This document shows, piece by piece, positions 30,001 to 57,000 of a DNA stretch of 64,000 nt. The DNA is from an uncultured Verrucomicrobiae bacterium. GTDB lineage: Bacteria > Verrucomicrobiota > Verrucomicrobiia > Limisphaerales > Palsa-1400. Within the stretch, counting starts at the first letter, position 1; every line of letters begins with the position of its first letter. Position numbers: made by a program. The stretch is taken from contig OY969763.1 of NCBI GenBank assembly GCA_963702845.1, forward strand, positions 96,001-160,000. Direction: 5' to 3'.

Positions 30001-33000
30001 AGAGAAGAAGAGCACACCAAGATGCCAATTTTTACGCCAGGCACATCGATCACAGGCTTCGTCTGTCCTTTGGAACCACGTTGGACAAATCGCGGATAAC
30101 GTCGCGATGGCTGACTATCATGTTTACCGATATCAGGGGATTCTCCGCGGTTGCCAATCAATTGCGGACCGAAAAGGAGATGATTGCCGATTTCCTCCAG
30201 CAACTCTACGCCGCCACTGTGGATTGTGCGCACAAGCACGACGGCATAGTTGATAAGTTTATGGGCGATGGGGCCATGCTGTTATTTGGTGTTGATGATG
30301 ATGATAATAGTTCCAAAAATCGACGTCATACGAAGAATGCAGTGCGAGCAGCGCTTGATTTGAGGAAACGTTGTGGGCCGATTATTGAAAGTTTTAGAGA
30401 GCAGGCCGCTGGAATGCATGCTGCACAAATCGCAGGCTTAGATTTGGGAATTGGAATCAATACTGCGGAGGTGTTAGTCGGTATAATAAAGACCGAACTT
30501 CGGGATCAGTTTACGGCTTTAGGACATGGCGTGAATCTCGCGCAACGTTTTGAAAGCATCGCTGGAAAGTCCAGCAGTCCAAACGCAAAACACCGTTATG
30601 GCAATATTCTAATCACGTCAATGGTAGAGAGCCGTATCCGTGGCGATTTTGTAATTAAGGTAGAACCTTCGCTTGCAAATCTGCGCAATATAAATGAGCC
30701 CCATGATGTTTGGAGTGTGGTGCGCGAAGTCGAACGGTAAACGATTGAGATTCTGGCTCTTCTGATGGCTTAACTTCGAGGCGTGTCCGCCTTGGCCCAA
30801 TTTGTGAATAAGTTTTTTGAAAAATCTTTGGGTATACCCCCGTAACTGTCCTAGTGCCTCATTTATTATATGCGGCATGAAAGCAAATAACACTGAGAAA
30901 AATGGTTCTAAGCCCGCCGTCGCTGAGGCTATGGCGCGGCCATCCGGCTCGAAGCCGGATTGGTGGGTGGCAGTGCCTGAATCAGAAAAAATAGTTTTGC
31001 GGAATGCGATCGGTGCAATTCGGCTGCAGAAGAAAAGCCGGTCTCCTCAGATTGCCAGTGCGGCGCAGAAATGGGATGCGACCATTTCGTGTTTTATTCG
31101 AGCGCGGCTGATGAATCGCAAAGTGCGACTCTCAACTGGCAACGTGCGGTCTATTTCCCGCGCAACAAACGGGCGTAACCAACAAGGTGGCGCTGGAGCT
31201 CGGGGTTAACCGGACACTGACTGCGTAACCATTCAATCGCGTCCTCAACTTCTTTTGTAAGATGAAATTTTTCGCTCCTGTTCGTCAGATCGATTTCGCC
31301 CTTCTCGGCCTTTCCGGTGGGTTTGATTGTGATTTCAATCAAAGCGGCGCCGGCGATGTCGGCGGCTTCTGCTGGATGCCGGGCATCGGTGCAACGTGCT
31401 GCGATGATTGCAGCCTGGGACTTGGGATCGGCTGCGAAGACTTTGAGTATCGCGACGAAATGTTGGTCACTGAAGTCGCGGGATTCGCCGGCGCACACAC
31501 GGCTGATGAAGCTACGGGACACGCCGGATTGGCGGGAAATTTCGGAATGGGTGATCCCACGTTCGTCGCAGATACGTTGCAGCGCGGTGCCGAGAAAGCT
31601 CATAAAATTTTTTACCTTTGCGTGCGCAGTTTATGCGCCTGCTACGCGATTGCAACCCGAGGTTATGCAACGGTTTGCGCGAAACGACCGCTGTTCCAGC
31701 GAAAAAAGCCGAAAAACAGCGTCAACAATTTTCTCACAAAAATTTGCTGCGCGAAAACAGCGCTAGTTGTCGCTTCATTACGGGAGGTGTCGCAAGTAGA
31801 CACCACACGGGTTCACACAAAAGAGGTCACGCAAAAAACCAGAGGTATAAACGTTTGCACGCGGCCACGGTGCTGCGCGTAACGCTTCGCAATAGAAAAC
31901 AAAGTTATGGAAACAGTACAACAAACCATCGTCACCCTGAAAGAGGGTTACATCACCAAAGATGAAGTCGCGCGGCGTATGAAGAAATCCGAGCGCACTG
32001 TCGAGAGATGGCAGAAGCGCGGGATCATTCCGTTCGTGAAATGCGGCCATGCCGTGCTTTTCGACTGGGTGGATGTGCAACGACATCTGGAAGCGAATTT
32101 CCGCGTTTGCGCGACCGCACAGCTACCCGCTTCAGCCGTCGCACATCTCTCCGCTTCCAAGAACTGAGCGTTAGCACGCGGCCACCTCAAATGAATTCCC
32201 GAAGAAAAGGAAAAGTCGGCGAGCGCGAGTTGGGCTTCCCAAGCCTGCCTCAAGTTAGGTGCCCCGAAAGAGACGGTCGCTTCGCGACACGAGATGCCTC
32301 GTTGGAGGCGAATCAATGAATAGTCGAACAAAAGGCAAACGTGGTGAACGGGAATTCGCCTCTCTCCTGCGCGAGCATGGTTTTGACGCGCGACGCGGAC
32401 AGCAGTTCTGCGGCGGCGAAGATAGCCCCGACGTGGTCAGTGAAGCGCTCGCCTGGCTGCACTTCGAAATCAAGCGCGTGCAGAACCTGAATCTTACCGA
32501 TGCGTGCGTGCAAGCGATTGGCGATTGCGGGCAGACGGTGTCTGCACTCAAGGGTGGCGTTCCTAAGCCGTGGGTGGTGGCGCATCGGAGAAATCATGCG
32601 CCGTGGCTGATCACGATGAGCGCTGAAACTTTTTTCAAATTTCTGAGGGGCGCGTTGCCTCCAGATGTAACCGAACAAAACAACAATACTCCGATGCCAA
32701 TTGGCACAGAGCAAAACATAGAAAGCAAAACGTATGAGTCTAGTCCTACAATCAACAGTTAGTTCCGATTTCAAACCGCATCCGGAAGGGATTCATCCCG
32801 CCGTTTGTGTCGATGTGATCGATCTCGGCATGGTCGAGTCCGAATACAAGGGTCAGGTGTCACTCAAGCGCAAGCTGCGCGTGGTGTTTGAATCCGAACA
32901 GGCGACTGCCGGTGGGGTTCGTTGCACGATCGGCAAGCGGTTCACTGCAAGTTTGCATCCGAAATCGCGCCTTGCGGAATTCCTCGGCAAGTGGCGCGGC

Positions 33001-54000: not shown

Positions 54001-57000
54001 ACGTTTGAATCGTAATGAAGTGCGAACTACTCGCGTCAGAGTGTAGTCGCGGAGCTCCCGTGAATTTCCACGCTTAGTAATTATCTAAGCAGCGTGGTGT
54101 CCATTTTGGTGTCCGCTCCGGCTCTCTTCTCCTCAAGTCCTTGTGTTCCAACACTCGGAGAATGGAGCCAGTTGCCGGACTTGAACCGGCGACCCACGCT
54201 TTACGAAAGCGTTGCTCTACCAACTGAGCTAAACTGGCGTCCCGAAAGGCACGACAAGGTAAAACCGCTCTCAGACCGTCGCAAGACAAAAGTCAGGACC
54301 CAGCCTTTGGACGTACGTTTCGTCCTTGCGCTCACACCGAAGTGAGCGGTGATTGATGTTGGGTCGTAGTTTTACTGAGCACTGCCCGAGGCCGGTTATT
54401 AAAGCCGCCGCCTGGTATGGCCAGTGCCCGTTGCAGAAATGAAAGCGTTCGAATCGTGCAAGCGAGTCCAGAGCAGTTGTTTCAGGCAAATCCCGAAACA
54501 TCCGTAGGGACTTACTCGCCTTGTCGGTATCGCAACAAAAAGCCACTATCGATGAAACCAAGATTTGTGGGATGAAACAGTTAATCAAAACTAAGGGAAT
54601 ACAGACGAAGCCAACCGACAACCGCGGGAGAAGCCCAAGTGCGCAGCCTCTGCGTATCGCAACTCCGGAAAGAACGGTGGCGAAAGAACATAAGGATGAG
54701 TTTGAGGGTGGTCGGCTGAAACCTGAGGTGCCGCGCGATCGGAATGCTGCAACGGACGTGCCCCTTCCCGCTCCAGAACGAGGTTCTTACGATGGCGACA
54801 CGGCCATTAAACTGTACCTGCGTGAAATCGGGCAGGTAAAACTCCTCACGCCCCAGGAAGAAATTGAATTAGCGGCCCGCATCAAGAAGGGCGACAAAAG
54901 AGCGCGCGAGCAGATGATCAAGGCGAACCTGCGCCTCGTCGTAAAGATCGCGCACGATTACGAAAATTTCGGATTGCCGCTGTTGGACCTGATCAACGAG
55001 GGGAACATCGGCTTGATGAAGGCGGTGGAGCGGTTCGACCCTTCCAAAGGCGGCAAGCTTTCGACTTACGGTTCGTGGTGGATCAAGCAATCGATCAAGC
55101 GCGCGTTGGCCAATCAGTCGAAGACCATTCGCTTGCCCGTGCACCTGGTCGACAAGATTTCGAAGATGCGCCGCACCGCGATGAAGTTGCAGGAAGTTTT
55201 TGGGCGCGAGCCAACTGATGAAGAGTTGGCGGAAGAGCTGGGAATGTCCGCCCAGCGCGTCACGCAAATGCGCACGGCGGCAATCCGGCCAGCCTCTTTG
55301 GATGCGCCGATTGGCGATGATGAATCGAACAATTTCGCCGAAGTCGTCGAAGATGAGAACGCCGACACACCTTACGAAACTCTCGAGGACAAAACCGTCA
55401 CGAGAATGTTGCAGGAGATGGTCAAGACGCTCGACGACCGCGAGGCGACAATTTTGAAGTATCGTTTTGGGCTCGATGGCGGTTCTGAAAAAACGCTTGA
55501 AGAGGTCGGTGAAAAATTCGGCGTCACCCGCGAGCGCGTCCGGCAAATCCAAAACATCGCGCTGAACAAGCTTCGCAAAATGATCGAGAAGCTCGAAGCT
55601 GTGAAGAGGTAAGCGAATCAGATCGCGGATATATCCTGCTCAATTACGTTGCAGGACGTTCATTTGGATCCGCTGTAAAAGCCCGCGTAAATACCGCCTT
55701 GCGCGAGCAATTCTTTTTCTGTGCCGATCTCGGCTATTTGGCCAGCCTTTAACACGACAATCCGATCGGCCCAACGAACCGTCGATAACCGGTGGGCGAT
55801 GATGAAAGTTGTTCGGTCCTTCATCAAAGCACGCAACGCATGCAGCAACGCATCCTCGGTCTCAGCATCCAACGCGCTGGTCGGCTCGTCCAAAATCAGA
55901 ATCGGCGCATCTTTCAATAACGCTCTCGCTATGGCGAGCCGTTGGCGTTCGCCGCCGGACAACGTCGCGCCACGTTCACCAATGACAGTGTCGTAGGTTT
56001 GAGGCAGCTGCTGAATAAACGCATCAGCATTGGCTGCTTTGGCAGCAGCTTCGATTTGCGCACGCGTTGCGTGGGGAGAGCCGTAGGCGATGTTCGCGGC
56101 GATGGACAGCGGAAACAAAAAGGGCTCTTGAGAGACAATCGCAACCTGCGACCGCAAACTGCTCAGTTTCACTTCCCGCAGGTCTTTGCCATCGATCAAC
56201 ACGCGTCCTTGCCACGGATCCAAAAAACGCGGAACAAGACTGACCAGAGTGCTCTTACCGGCGCCGGTCGTGCCCACCAACGCAATCGTTTCTCCCGCGC
56301 GCACGTCGAGCGCAATGTCGCGCAGGGCAGGGCGGTCGGATTCATAGCCAACAGTGACGTTTTCAAATTGCACGCGGCCGCTCAGACGCGGCAGAGAGAT
56401 TGCGCCGGGGCGGTCAGCGATTTCCTGCTCCGCGTGTAAAATCTCCAGCACACGGCGCGAGCTGCCGGCCGCGCTTTGCACGATTGCAGACGTGTACATG
56501 ATTGAATTCAGCGGCGTGTAGAGCGAGCCGAGGTAGGAAAGGAAAAGCAAAATCGTGCCGACGCTCATATTTCCAGCCAGCCCATGCCGTGCTCCAATCC
56601 AAAGCACTCCGGATGTGCCAACAGCGGTCGCCAATCCCATCAATATTTTGAACTGCAATTGCACGTTCGTTAACGAAAGCGTCGCCACGAGACTTTCGTT
56701 GAGGTTCGCTTGTAAACGACGTTCGCTTTCCCGTTCGCGACCGAACGCCTGCACGATCGGGATAGCGGCGAACGTTTGCTCGATGATATCAAAACCGCGC
56801 CCCTCAATTTCCTGCTGCTGCCAACCACGCTCCATCATCGGTTTTGCGTAAATGAAAAAGATCAACGCCATGTAAGGAACGATGGCGATCGACAAAAGAG
56901 TCAGCGTCGGGTCGATGCGCCACAAAATGACAAACATCATCACTAATGTGACCACTGCCGATACGAGCGGCAGCATGGCATCTTTGACGATGACCGACAC

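Follow-up and report, generated by a model that had tools for sequence, protein, structure and literature searches.

Tail-less, capsid-encoding integrative elements in a Verrucomicrobia genome: probable members of a family acting like capsid-forming phage satellites

The DNA analysed here (the window, 64,000 nucleotides) carries an integrated element, E1, with genes for building and filling a phage head and no recognisable tail genes, which raises the question of how such an element would travel. Using blastn and tblastn we have found four further copies (E2–E5) at the places given for them in the survey's finding, and the five related elements in this one Verrucomicrobia genome are real: full-length ORFs for terS, terL, portal, scaffold, SPP1-type major capsid protein and Ad1 adaptor are present in 5/5 copies. 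Since the genes that build and fill heads are present and tail genes are absent, E1–E5 most likely spread on tails borrowed from other phages, on which they probably depend; that a helper's tails must be borrowed, as previously put, is what we infer. We consider it rather probable that E1–E5 are part of a family, found across the Verrucomicrobiota, of integrative elements acting like capsid-forming phage satellites, and the best reading is that this family functions like the cf-PICIs, having arisen separately. A capsid-making, tail-less lifestyle has so far been described only in bacterial groups other than Verrucomicrobia. The survey's observation is in part confirmed and its interpretation in part supported, its central reading being strengthened.

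The gene content and PHROG E-values reported for E1 were almost exactly reproduced (Table 1). The conserved core spans window 30955-54184 and matches E3 at 86% over 30955-31656 (blastn) and E2 at 74% over its first part, to 31118; at window ~31100, where the left border had been placed, there is no att repeat. The tRNA-Thr said to lie beside E1 is indeed there, and the 22-nt core of its 3' end is repeated near the start of the window and, outside it, at contig 91610-91631. The E1 core sits inside a 48.6-kb unit flanked by tRNA-Thr repeats, which contains another integrase besides that of E1 and, in addition, a defence arm of Dnd type. This left arm encodes a NERD nuclease, a Schlafen/AAA_16 STAND-like protein, RmuC, HNH, DndA and DndB-like proteins, followed by DndE/HerA-like, DndD/PbeC and DndC proteins, a WYL/WCX regulator (27545-28621, sharing 55% identity with the WYL protein of the E2 left arm), a histidine kinase and a PycC-like receiver-cyclase. 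Within the core, the hotspot between terL and portal differs among copies (5-15 kb), and its genes in E1 gave no PHROG, Pfam or PADLOC match. Ad1 is the only neck protein detected in E1. The membrane proteins encoded after it could be lysis or exclusion genes, which counts against the satellite reading: holins are forbidden in cfPICI under the SatelliteFinder rules, as given in the relevant passages of PMC10085698.

Table 1. Features of E1 and of the surrounding unit, in window coordinates
Feature	Position	Strand	Evidence and remarks
Copy of tRNA-Thr 3' end core, 21/22 nt	5528..5548		Exact match to 54163-54183; probably the att site bounding the 48.6-kb unit on the left
Second tyrosine integrase	5794..7065	-	50.3% identity to E1 integrase (tblastn, 1.6e-101); PF00589 4e-8
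Left arm, defence-type cargo	7094..30740		Pfam, PADLOC
Left edge of conserved core	30955..31118		DNA homology to E2/E3 starts here
cI/Cro-type HTH repressor candidate, without peptidase domain	31151..31603	-	HTH_31 8.6e-7, HTH_3, HTH_26; E2 and E3 counterparts 75-95% identical
HTH_17 excisionase/regulator-like protein	31907..32167	+	phrog_66 2.9e-9; PF12728 8.8e-7
Recombination genes	32259..34300	+	PHROG and Pfam scans
RusA-like resolvase	32259-32762	+	Recombination gene
phrog_862 protein	32734-33378	+	Recombination gene
PD-(D/E)XK exonuclease	33452-34300	+	Recombination gene
Candidate primase part	35035..36099	+	No PHROG or Pfam match of its own; residues 223-352 match an E4 protein that matches phrog_2597 'DNA primase'
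Membrane-anchored HEAT-repeat accessory gene between primase and helicase parts	36161..36838	-	HEAT_2 3e-6
AAA_25 helicase part of primase-helicase	36859..37884	+	phrog_2597 3e-51; PF13481 1.6e-28
Small terminase subunit (terS)	37995..38606	+	phrog_6299 3e-23
Large terminase subunit (terL)	38603..40018	+	phrog_979 2e-24; Terminase_6N
Accessory-gene hotspot, terL-portal interval	40040..45950		Small genes, for the most part on the minus strand; membrane segments in several
Portal protein	45950..47557	+	phrog_145 8.5e-121; DUF4055; PDB portal 8xb5 1e-39
Head scaffolding protein	47570..48367	+	phrog_206 1e-41
Major capsid protein, SPP1 gp13 type	48425..49435	+	phrog_247 6.5e-91; 43% identity to SPP1 gp13; PDB 4an5 9e-71
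Conserved 75-aa protein after capsid gene	49507..49734	+	49 relatives, 58-92% identical; possibly a head accessory protein; AF2 model (pLDDT 75) without significant fold match
Two non-core genes, o288 (288 aa) and o105 (105 aa)	49798..50978	+	PHROG/Pfam scans; homologues in few relatives. o288: Arg-rich N-terminus, phrog_10356 5e-8, weak LamG/ConA-like match (Laminin_G_3 0.0017, below cut-off). o105: predicted model ferredoxin-like alpha/beta, not Hc1-like
Head-tail adaptor Ad1	50980..51564	+	phrog_477 1.6e-33; PF20557 3.5e-26
106-aa protein (o106), one membrane helix and coiled coil	51575..51895	+	74-78% identical in many relatives
Lipoprotein-like protein (o263), lipobox IVGC, C-terminal membrane helices	51892..52608	+	Conserved after Ad1 in relatives; likely start ATG at 51892 (ORF open from 51817)
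Small protein adjoining integrase	52618..52965	+	Travels with integrase in relatives; excisionase candidate by position alone; no PHROG or Pfam family match
E1 tyrosine integrase	52972..54000	-	phrog_1 6.5e-18; PF00589 2.4e-9
tRNA-Thr(cgt)	54163..54238	-	att core = its 3' 22 nt, 54163-54184

The five elements measure 29-55 kb. E2 (contig 1686067-1741474, 55.4 kb) lies in the tmRNA gene between 24-nt repeats of the tmRNA 3' end, and E3 (contig 4277393-4324298, 46.9 kb) at tRNA-Asp with a repeat of 28/29 nt: the sizes of 28-34 kb first given for these two were too small, and no integrase is found inside those earlier borders, the actual genes (contig 1686153-1687529 and 4322854-4324209, respectively) being located 17-19 kb outside them. 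The 50-nt direct repeats of E4 were recovered exactly, and those of E5 are exact as well but 55 nt long instead of 61 nt. The copies differ in integrase and att site, and their att repeats are perfect or near-perfect. Using Pfam and PADLOC we have also recovered the distinctive cargo, that is HmaA/B/C (SNF2, DUF1156, DUF499) in E4 and a QatC/QueC-like gene in E5; PD-T7-5 is also among the defence cargo (PADLOC).

The family is found in 24/151 genomes of the order, often in multiple copies per genome, and in 21/108 genera sampled; related loci number 80 in all, distributed over 58 MAG isolate labels of which several contribute 3-5, and 58/80 loci bear a Verrucomicrobiota label. Ten IMG/VR contigs of 15-36 kb had been said to share the gene order: the order terL, portal, scaffold, capsid is indeed kept, in 8 contigs of 15-40 kb, and the classification given to 3/3 of the IMG/VR relatives that we checked is provirus, which gives no sign of packaging. 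In 41 relatives Ad1 is followed by 4 kb or more of sequence; of these, 36 have no connector/tail PHROG match there in the subset of ORFs scanned (107 proteins), and eight have an E1-type integrase 1.4-2.5 kb downstream of Ad1. The tail-less elements that we checked all group in a single clade of the capsid trees, with no more than moderate support (SH-like 89 in FastTree, SH-aLRT 76 in IQ-TREE quick), the tailed fragments L021 and L030 falling just outside, which supports a tail-less state common to a large Verrucomicrobiota family with tailed phages of the same head type as its neighbours. Sequence comparison shows purifying selection on the head genes: for terL, portal, scaffold, capsid and adaptor, dN/dS falls within 0.03-0.30, dS among close copies being 0.18-0.96. 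Ad1 taken by itself gives 0.06-0.13 in comparisons of close copies, and 0.25 when E1 is compared with E4. These ratios, the family's occurrence among the genomes, the tail-less relatives and the tailed outgroup fragments are evidence for an old and selected tail-less condition. Moreover, since the Ad1 adaptor is retained under selection a tail is to be expected, and the capsid protein is of a type that elsewhere belongs to phages with long tails, such as SPP1 and its relatives.

The same observations bear on an improbable alternative, namely that E1–E5 are a defective (cryptic) prophage lineage which lost its tail module once and persists vertically, by integrase hopping or by generalised transduction, the host retaining the defence and membrane cargo and the head genes having a host-side or residual role, with no dedicated helper. 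The large defence cargo (HmaABC, PD-T7-5, QatC-like, Dnd-type arm) fits this, as do the many head and packaging relics in the genome (orphan terS-terL pairs among host genes, a terL-portal pair by hom/lysC) and the fact that no helper phage was found in the genome or among relatives; excision products and packaging evidence were likewise not found. So does the length of E1-E3, 47-55 kb att-to-att with IS110 insertions: an SPP1 head holds roughly 45 kb of DNA, and these three may be too large for a head of that type. Such lengths and the missing helper also weigh against the satellite-like reading. However, all five copies, diverged as they are, have kept their head and packaging genes intact, at the low dN/dS given above, and the varied integrases and att sites with well-preserved repeats, together with the spread over genera, argue for continuing horizontal spread using the capsid.

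Whether the elements encode tails of their own was addressed at three levels. At the level of the elements, tail-category PHROG matches amount to 0/274 ORFs of at least 60-70 aa (38 in E1, 85 in E4 and E5, 104 in the inner parts and 47 in the left arms of E2 and E3); the claim that no E1 protein falls in a tail family thus holds (0/38), and the reservation that PHROGs had covered E1 alone is lifted. E4 and E5, whose att repeats are exact, offer no space for tail genes: the Ad1 gene of E5 ends 145 nt from attR, and the largest unassigned ORF of this element has 360 aa. At the level of the single-contig genome, profile searches with seven families (PF10145, PF04984, PF04865, PF05709, phrog_290, phrog_161 and phrog_179, the last also without match in any control genome and thus of little weight) gave no match to a tape measure, sheath, baseplate J, Dit, phrog_290, Hc1 or tail terminator family; the neck and tail ORFs of tailed relatives had no tblastn match either. 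The statement that no tail family occurs anywhere in the genome stands for these seven, but there is a match to phrog_382 'minor tail protein with lysin activity' and a collagen + Peptidase_S74 fibre-like protein is encoded at contig 6005503-6007065. The head-closure (Hc1) protein was not found in E1–E5, which counts against the satellite-like reading; some relatives encode an Hc1-like one. At the level of the order, Pfam detects TMP in 15/151 genomes and sheath in 15/151, never on the contig or in the neighbourhood of an element-family capsid gene (9 genomes with both).

These results make it still less probable that E1–E5 are self-sufficient viruses, whose tail proteins, highly divergent or tiny, would be hidden among the unassigned genes, or whose delivery would rely on the adaptor and fibre-like proteins without a conventional tail. 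The elements do have many small unassigned genes, o288 has a match in a 'virion structural protein' family and a weak one to LamG, and family libraries are poor in phages of this phylum; in 10 related loci, Ad1 and an Hc1-like protein are followed by a protein whose N-terminal 48 aa are conserved and whose C-terminus varies, the latter repeat-rich by eye and perhaps beta-helical and fibre- or spike-like. Yet E5 leaves no space, o288 and o105 are missing from most relatives, and PHROGs readily recognised the terminator and sheath-like genes of tailed relatives, as Pfam did tail families elsewhere in the order. A split, host-controlled system resembling a gene transfer agent, its heads coming from the elements and its tails from an unlinked chromosomal locus, is very unlikely: the fibre-like gene does adjoin an orphan terS-terL pair (contig 6002.6-6007.1 kb) and several lone terS-like genes exist, but tube, sheath, tape measure, Dit and baseplate families were not found in the genome-wide searches, and the elements retain integrases, att sites and repressors and are therefore mobile, not domesticated.

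According to the satellite-like reading, an element would insert at a tRNA or tmRNA gene by its own tyrosine integrase and be kept silent by the HTH repressor; upon a presumed induction signal it would be replicated by its own primase-helicase, assemble SPP1-type heads from its portal, scaffold and capsid protein, fill them by TerS/TerL and cap the portal with Ad1, the particle becoming infective only once this adaptor has received a tail made by another phage, unrelated or no more than distantly related. The anti-phage and membrane-protein cargo in variable hotspots (terL-portal, portal-scaffold and primase-helicase intervals, integrase-side arm) would repay the host for carriage.

In respect to known systems, E1–E5 resemble SPP1-like siphophages (Bacillus phage SPP1 and relatives) in their capsid protein, scaffold-dependent head, Ad1-type adaptor and terS/terL pair. 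In SPP1, head-closure, tail-joining, tube, tape-measure and tip genes follow the adaptor; none of these is found in E1–E5. With cf-PICIs, as the prototype EcCIEDL933 is portrayed in sections of the preprint by Alqurainy et al. (10.1101/2022.09.08.507074), they have in common integrase, regulators, a primase-type replication gene, their own terS, terL, portal, capsid and head-tail adaptor, accessory or defence cargo, a lack of tail genes and, presumably, transfer by own heads and foreign tails; the helper dependence of E1–E5 is a presumed one. The cf-PICI-like label accordingly holds for a capsid-forming, tail-less, mobile element but not for the core gene set: no protease, HNH or head-tail connector/closure gene was found, the capsid, of SPP1 gp13 type, goes with a scaffolding protein instead of being protease-processed, and the prototype measures only 15.4 kb. 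The closest relatives of the capsid gene are phages and its own family, which indicates a separate origin. In the passages on hosts in PMC10085698 cfPICI are placed in Proteobacteria and Firmicutes, and, as the survey had noted, 'Verrucomicrobi' occurs 0 times in its main text. The cf-PISPs (Vibrio satellite-plasmids), as outlined in parts of PMC13230959, also combine a head and packaging set with an absence of tail genes, helper-tail use being interpreted, and are classed as cf-PICI by SatelliteFinder; unlike E1–E5 they are episomal, measure 15.8 kb, carry protease and HNH and lack an integrase. Marine VEIMEs, in the portions of Eppley et al. 2022 (PMC9618062) that describe them, are likewise phage-parasitising integrative elements, some in Verrucomicrobia genomes, but are <17 kb and do not encode major capsid genes.

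The survey's finding of five related head-gene elements in one genome is real, and their borders can now be corrected. The genome is a single contig of 6.03 Mb, of which the window covers positions 96001-160000, and searching it with E1, the copy inside the window (blastn and tblastn), returned the four further copies, E2 to E5, where they had been placed, and PHROGs and Pfam reproduced the gene list reported for E1 over 38 ORFs (window 30955-54238). E4 and E5 end in exact repeats of 50 and 55 nt, E2 in 24 nt repeated from the 3' end of tmRNA and E3 in a tRNA-Asp repeat (28/29 nt). 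The borders first drawn for E2 and E3 were too narrow and enclosed no integrase; their true sizes are 55.4 and 46.9 kb, and the elements measure 29.1-55.4 kb from att to att.

In respect to E1, a left border had been set near window 31100, and there no att repeat was found between 28000 and 32500 using 7-nt words and local alignment. Further copies of the 22 nt that form the 3' core of tRNA-Thr were located at window 5528-5548 and at contig 91610-91631, which indicates that the conserved core of E1 lies on the tRNA side of a unit of 48.6 kb bounded by att sites. At the far end of this unit lies a second integrase, 50% identical to that of E1. We think that the left arm belongs to E1, because its WYL protein shares 55% identity with the one encoded in the corresponding arm of E2; less probably, two elements stand here in tandem and have lost the att site at their junction. 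The three copies of the tRNA-Thr 3' core point to a tandem array at this tRNA gene, composed of a 9.9-kb segment of small ORFs without assignment and then the 48.6-kb unit. A search of the genomes of five relatives for the att-core pattern gave one copy in three of them and none in two, and thus no element size.

Features of E1 and ends and cassette arrays of the related elements (window positions for E1, contig positions for all others)
Element	Feature	Position	Strand	Evidence
E1	cI-type HTH gene, candidate repressor	31151-31603	minus	Pfam
E1	HTH_17 excisionase/regulator-like gene	31907-32167		Pfam
E1	RusA-like resolvase, then PD-(D/E)XK exonuclease	after HTH_17 gene		
E1	AAA_25 primase-helicase part			phrog_2597, 3e-51
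E1	terS, then terL			PHROGs, 3e-23 and 2e-24
E1	run (~6 kb) of small genes without family match	between terL and portal		
E1	portal, scaffold, major head protein			PHROGs, 8.5e-121, 1e-41, 6.5e-91
E1	three small genes	between major head protein and Ad1		
E1	Ad1 head-tail adaptor			PHROGs, 1.6e-33
E1	two membrane proteins, then small gene	after Ad1		
E1	tyrosine integrase	52972-54000		PHROGs, 6.5e-18
E1	tRNA-Thr(cgt)	54163-54238		
E1 left arm	second integrase	5794-7065		
E1 left arm	NERD, Schlafen/AAA_16 STAND-like protein, RmuC (DRT-associated model), type IV-like HNH			
E1 left arm	Dnd-type set: DndA, DndC, DndD/PbeC, DndB/DpdB-like			
E1 left arm	WYL/WCX regulator; receiver-cyclase, PycC-like (resembles Pycsar cyclase)			
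E2	tmRNA 3'-end repeat	1686067-1686090 and 1741451-1741474		
E2	integrase	1686153-1687529		
E2	cassette array	1717-1732 kb		
E3	tRNA-Asp repeat	4277393-4277421 and 4324270-4324298		
E3	integrase	4322854-4324209		
E3	cassette array	4284.7-4295.5 kb		
E4	tRNA-Thr(tgt) repeat	2221354-2221403 and 2253833-2253882		
E5	tRNA-Met repeat	4814643-4814697 and 4843654-4843708		
	further cassette arrays	397-399 kb and 2357-2361 kb		

The capsid protein of E1 shares 43-49% identity with its counterparts in SPP1 and further long-tailed phages of Firmicutes and matches the solved SPP1 coat protein (9e-71), a similarity which indicates a head type that is normally joined to a long tail. Among the E1 products named here by their length in residues, two that follow the adaptor Ad1, o106 (a single membrane helix and a coiled coil) and o263 (a lipobox and C-terminal membrane helices), could have lysis or exclusion functions. 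The predicted structure of o105 (pLDDT 79) gave no significant match, and the model suggests a ferredoxin-like fold, unlike the head-closure protein Hc1; that of a conserved 75-aa protein (pLDDT 75) had no match at E ≤ 0.001 in PDB or BFVD, and Ad1 and o288 had none in a PDB sequence search. A gene for a membrane-anchored HEAT-repeat protein lies on the minus strand at window 36161-36838, opposite to and between the primase-like and helicase genes, and diverged copies of it are stacked at contig 2845-2848 kb.

Tail genes are absent from all five copies in the scans performed. None of the 38 E1 ORFs matches a tail family in PHROGs or Pfam, and no tail-category PHROG was matched by the 85 ORFs of E4 and E5, the 104 ORFs in the interior of E2 and E3 or the 47 ORFs of the E2 and E3 left arms. 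By Pfam these two arms encode integrase, zeta toxin, AAA_16, DUF2071, WYL, HEAT and IS110 proteins and no structural family; the E1 left arm was covered by Pfam and PADLOC, and ORFs above 60-70 aa were scanned throughout. E5 ends 145 nt past its adaptor gene and has no ORF without assignment above 360 aa, and in E4 the adaptor is followed by an HmaA/B/C defence system and an integrase. The earlier statement that no tail family occurs anywhere in the genome holds for the seven families searched in six frames, namely PF10145 (tape measure), PF04984 (sheath), PF04865 (baseplate J), PF05709 (Dit), phrog_290, phrog_161 (Hc1) and phrog_179 (tail terminator), the last blank saying little because no control genome gave a phrog_179 match; it has two exceptions, a collagen and Peptidase_S74 fibre-like protein at contig 6005503-6007065 and a match to phrog_382, 'minor tail protein with lysin activity', at contig 5258293-5259504. 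Tails do not simply escape notice in this clade, since in a sample of 151 genomes of the order PF10145 and PF04984 were each matched in 15.

This gene content resembles that of the capsid-forming satellites known as cf-PICIs, for which the SatelliteFinder model, in the passages of PMC10085698 that describe it, has 11 core components and forbids tails and holins. E1-E5 share with them an integrase, a primase-replicase (phrog_2597 and AAA_25 in E1, other primase families in E2-E5), their own terS and terL, a portal and a major capsid protein (E-family, SPP1 gp13-like and not of the PF05065 type), the phrog_477 adaptor Ad1 in all five copies and the lack of tail genes, both in the element scans and in the genome-wide family searches. 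As candidates for the AlpA/MerR/Stl-type regulator of the model E1 has the HTH_17 and cI-type HTH genes, assigned by Pfam families; as regards lysis, no lysis-category PHROG was matched, and in E1-E3 the genes after Ad1 include two for conserved membrane proteins. The elements differ from cf-PICIs in that the scanned E1-E5 ORFs include no head maturation protease and have a scaffold (phrog_206) instead, in that no HNH gene occurs in the E1 core or in E2-E5 (the sole one of E1 being in the left defence arm, window 16767-17678), in that no connector or closure protein was found by the phrog_161 and tblastn searches of the genome, and in being 2-3.5 times longer than the 15.4-kb prototype described in 10.1101/2022.09.08.507074, cf-PICIs being small (about one third of the helper) and having satellite-sized capsids. 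E1-E5 would thus work like cf-PICIs and yet are not filed among them, because the protease, the HNH gene and the connector are missing and the size is larger. According to PMC10085698, phages gave rise to the capsids of cf-PICIs on three or more occasions, and the E-family looks like a further, separate origin of capsid-forming elements. Other satellites differ again, marine VEIMEs of Verrucomicrobia being described in part of PMC9618062 as lacking capsid genes and the Vibrio cf-PISPs in part of PMC13230959 as small plasmids. No description of such elements in Verrucomicrobiota was found in the main texts of the literature to 2026; the host tables of supplements may list further phyla.

The best-supported reading, and one that we hold to be probable, is that E1-E5 are capsid-forming satellites. 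The elements carry diverse tyrosine integrases at tRNA or tmRNA genes, HTH repressors, their own replication and packaging genes, scaffold-dependent SPP1-type head genes and one neck protein. On induction an element would excise, replicate and fill its own heads, presumably by headful packaging, as the TerS/TerL type suggests. The heads capped by Ad1 would then be finished by the tails of a co-infecting phage, by analogy to cf-PICI heads, for which completion by such tails is reported as experimentally shown in 10.1101/2022.09.08.507074. In E1-E3, at 47-55 kb, the DNA may exceed what an SPP1-like head can take. The head of SPP1 itself holds about 45 kb.

Queries with the E1 capsid protein yielded 50 IMG/VR loci and the best 80 of 125 genome loci, and of these 80, 58 are labelled Verrucomicrobiota; 58 isolate labels stand behind them, several with 3-5 loci. 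Another 11 among the best 80 (L080, L082, L102, L104, L108, L111, L121, L125, L128, L132 and L133) bear Actinomycetota or Pseudomonadota labels, which are likely binning or labelling errors; their MAG labels are Bifidobacterium/Bifidobacteriaceae or Hyphomicrobiales. In the order sample the capsid gene occurs in 24 of 151 genomes and 21 of 108 genera, often in 2-4 copies. We retained those 41 of the 130 related loci that combine a capsid of 55% identity or more with an Ad1 gene and 4 kb or more of sequence past it, eight of which have an E1-type integrase 1.4-2.5 kb after Ad1; three relatives are rated 31-62% complete by CheckV. A PHROG scan took in 107 proteins of the 41 loci, from ORFs on the plus strand with 140 aa or more and ORFs on the minus strand with 450 aa or more and a start inside 2.5 kb; shorter ORFs and another 25 large ones on the minus strand lie outside this set. 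The scan found connector or tail matches in five loci. Two of these, the IMG/VR 'linear' fragments L021 and L030, encode a Neck1 or tail-terminator protein and a phrog_290 protein of 388-394 aa, and are pieces of tailed phages with the head type of E1, which hint at the head/neck type that a helper might have; searching IMG/VR for more tailed relatives with the phrog_290 protein of L030 gave only one more fragment, of 8.4 kb. The other three (L073, L091 and L097) match phrog_9648 over their N-terminal 44-47 residues, and L091 and L097 have an Hc1-like protein too. By tblastn, 11 of the relatives on genome contigs encode an Hc1-like protein of 155 aa after Ad1, with a distant match in L021 and L030, and a gene whose product has 48 conserved N-terminal residues and a variable C-terminus was seen in ten loci; by eye this C-terminus looks fibre- or spike-like. 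The two genes stand in this order in a sub-group made up of L071, L073-L075, L085, L091, L097, L099, L121 and L122, among whose scanned ORFs there is no tube, sheath or tape measure protein. Neither these two proteins (tblastn) nor the ORFs for neck and tail proteins in L021 and L030 have a match in the genome of the window.

A FastTree phylogeny of 97 capsid proteins places the 38 checked tail-less relatives and E1-E5 in one clade of 90 rows (SH-like 89), with L021, L020 and then L030 branching directly outside it, and a quick IQ-TREE analysis of 39 rows has the same shape, 32 tail-less rows forming one clade (SH-aLRT 76). The simplest reading of these trees, for which support is moderate, is that the tail module may have been lost once and that a long diversification followed.

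No helper phage was found in the genome, in its relatives or in the order sample, and the other phage-like loci of the genome are relics or further head-only clusters. A look-up of public data for window 45950-54240 listed no sequencing run and no RNA data. Two loci are intact terS-terL pairs of the same family as in E1, X1 (L009, contig 2814199-2816529) among the host genes DUF1501 and PSCyt2/PSD1, and X2 (L012, contig 6002575-6004757) beside nuoH, J, K and L and also adjoining the collagen/Peptidase_S74 fibre-like gene; their terL are 65% and 54% identical to that of E1. A terS-like domain fused to other sequence was observed in two further genes, at contig 2924175 and 5404430. Y2 (L019, contig 2302723-2305865) is a relic in which genes for homoserine dehydrogenase and aspartokinase come directly after terL and portal, and its 966-aa protein, a weak tape-measure match, is CheR/CheB-like. 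Y1 (L017, contig 5239999-5249251) is a head-only cluster in which no tail genes were found, with a protease, an HK97-type capsid, an adaptor (phrog_442), a portal and a short terL in unusual order, unrelated to the cluster of E1-E5. In the order sample, a tape measure or sheath match was obtained in 9 of 24 genomes with the family capsid vs 18 of 127 without it (odds ratio 3.6, Fisher p 0.016), a statistic that is overstated because the genomes are related. The tail match and the capsid gene share a contig in only one of the nine (G053), 1.6 Mb apart, and the sheath loci of G053, G076 and G147 have no tblastn match to E1 proteins or to the genes of the tailed relatives.

In such a setting one may ask if a helper tail is needed at all. 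Heads capped by Ad1 and bearing surface proteins of the element (in E1 the protein that resembles LamG, in the relatives the fibre-like proteins with the conserved N-terminus) might adsorb and deliver DNA independently of tails. In a variant of this idea, chromosomal DNA might be packaged into E-family heads by the terS-terL pairs that stand alone and by the isolated terS-like genes. We regard these two proposals, even taken together, as very improbable. If true, the former would add a new type of virion to the portal-bearing HK97-fold viruses and the latter would be a satellite of a satellite. The reading as a decaying prophage is countered by the state of the head and packaging genes: terL, portal, scaffold, capsid and adaptor are full-length in all five copies, with dS of 0.18-0.96 in close pairs and dN/dS of 0.03-0.30 between copies. 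For example, the capsid proteins of E1 and E2 are 99% identical at a dS of 0.29 (dN/dS 0.027), and Ad1 has a dN/dS of 0.06-0.13 in close copies. A complete temperate tailed prophage is dismissed as the PHROG scans found no tail module (tube, tape measure or sheath, tip/baseplate) within the att-bounded elements. A gene transfer agent, in the sense of a domesticated head-tail cluster that has tail genes but neither integrase nor att sites, is dismissed as the elements do have integrases and att repeats and gave no tail match in the scans.

If E1-E5 are satellites, such capsid-forming elements are not confined to Proteobacteria and Firmicutes and would have originated at least once more, in Verrucomicrobiota and out of a phage of the SPP1 type. 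In this phylum they are common, given that 24 of the 151 sampled genomes of the order carry the capsid gene, and they have two to three times the size of known cf-PICIs. 'Incomplete provirus' calls in virus catalogues would then conceal a distinct element class. Five elements at five att sites of one genome also provide a natural series for the study of how mutual exclusion is avoided and of which parts of the head-tail joint the use of foreign tails requires.

Satellites of this kind would also ferry defence systems at several swap-prone hotspots. The E1 left arm is a dense defence region by Pfam and PADLOC (window 7094-30740). The HmaA/B/C system of E4 (1e-187, 2e-118 and 2e-91) is accompanied by a PDC-S05/RhuM gene and by PD-T7-5 between portal and scaffold, and E5 encodes, besides a QatC-like protein (2e-55), a toxin resembling HigB and a regulator of ImmA/IrrE type. 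The hotspot between terL and portal contains small membrane-protein genes without family match, and in E2 and E3 it is a 10-15-kb array of small gene cassettes with repeated junctions of 50-270 nt between them; some of these junctions derive from the 3' end of terL or from the region upstream of portal. The array of E2 includes an IS110 copy that is 99.5% identical to one in the E3 left arm (4307.0-4308.7 kb), and fragments of the terL 3' end are scattered at five other chromosomal sites. Finally, an 18-nt motif, a 4-bp inverted repeat around TAGC and then GGCCAC, was observed at 22 sites of the genome (at most 2 mismatches) and had 0 matches in 1.6 Mb of the relatives' loci. In E1 it lies at window 31851, 32168, 34317, 42538 and 47684; 16 of the 22 sites are inside E1-E3 and E5, always element-forward and both intergenic and coding, and the motif has two variants with a paired change in both half-sites.
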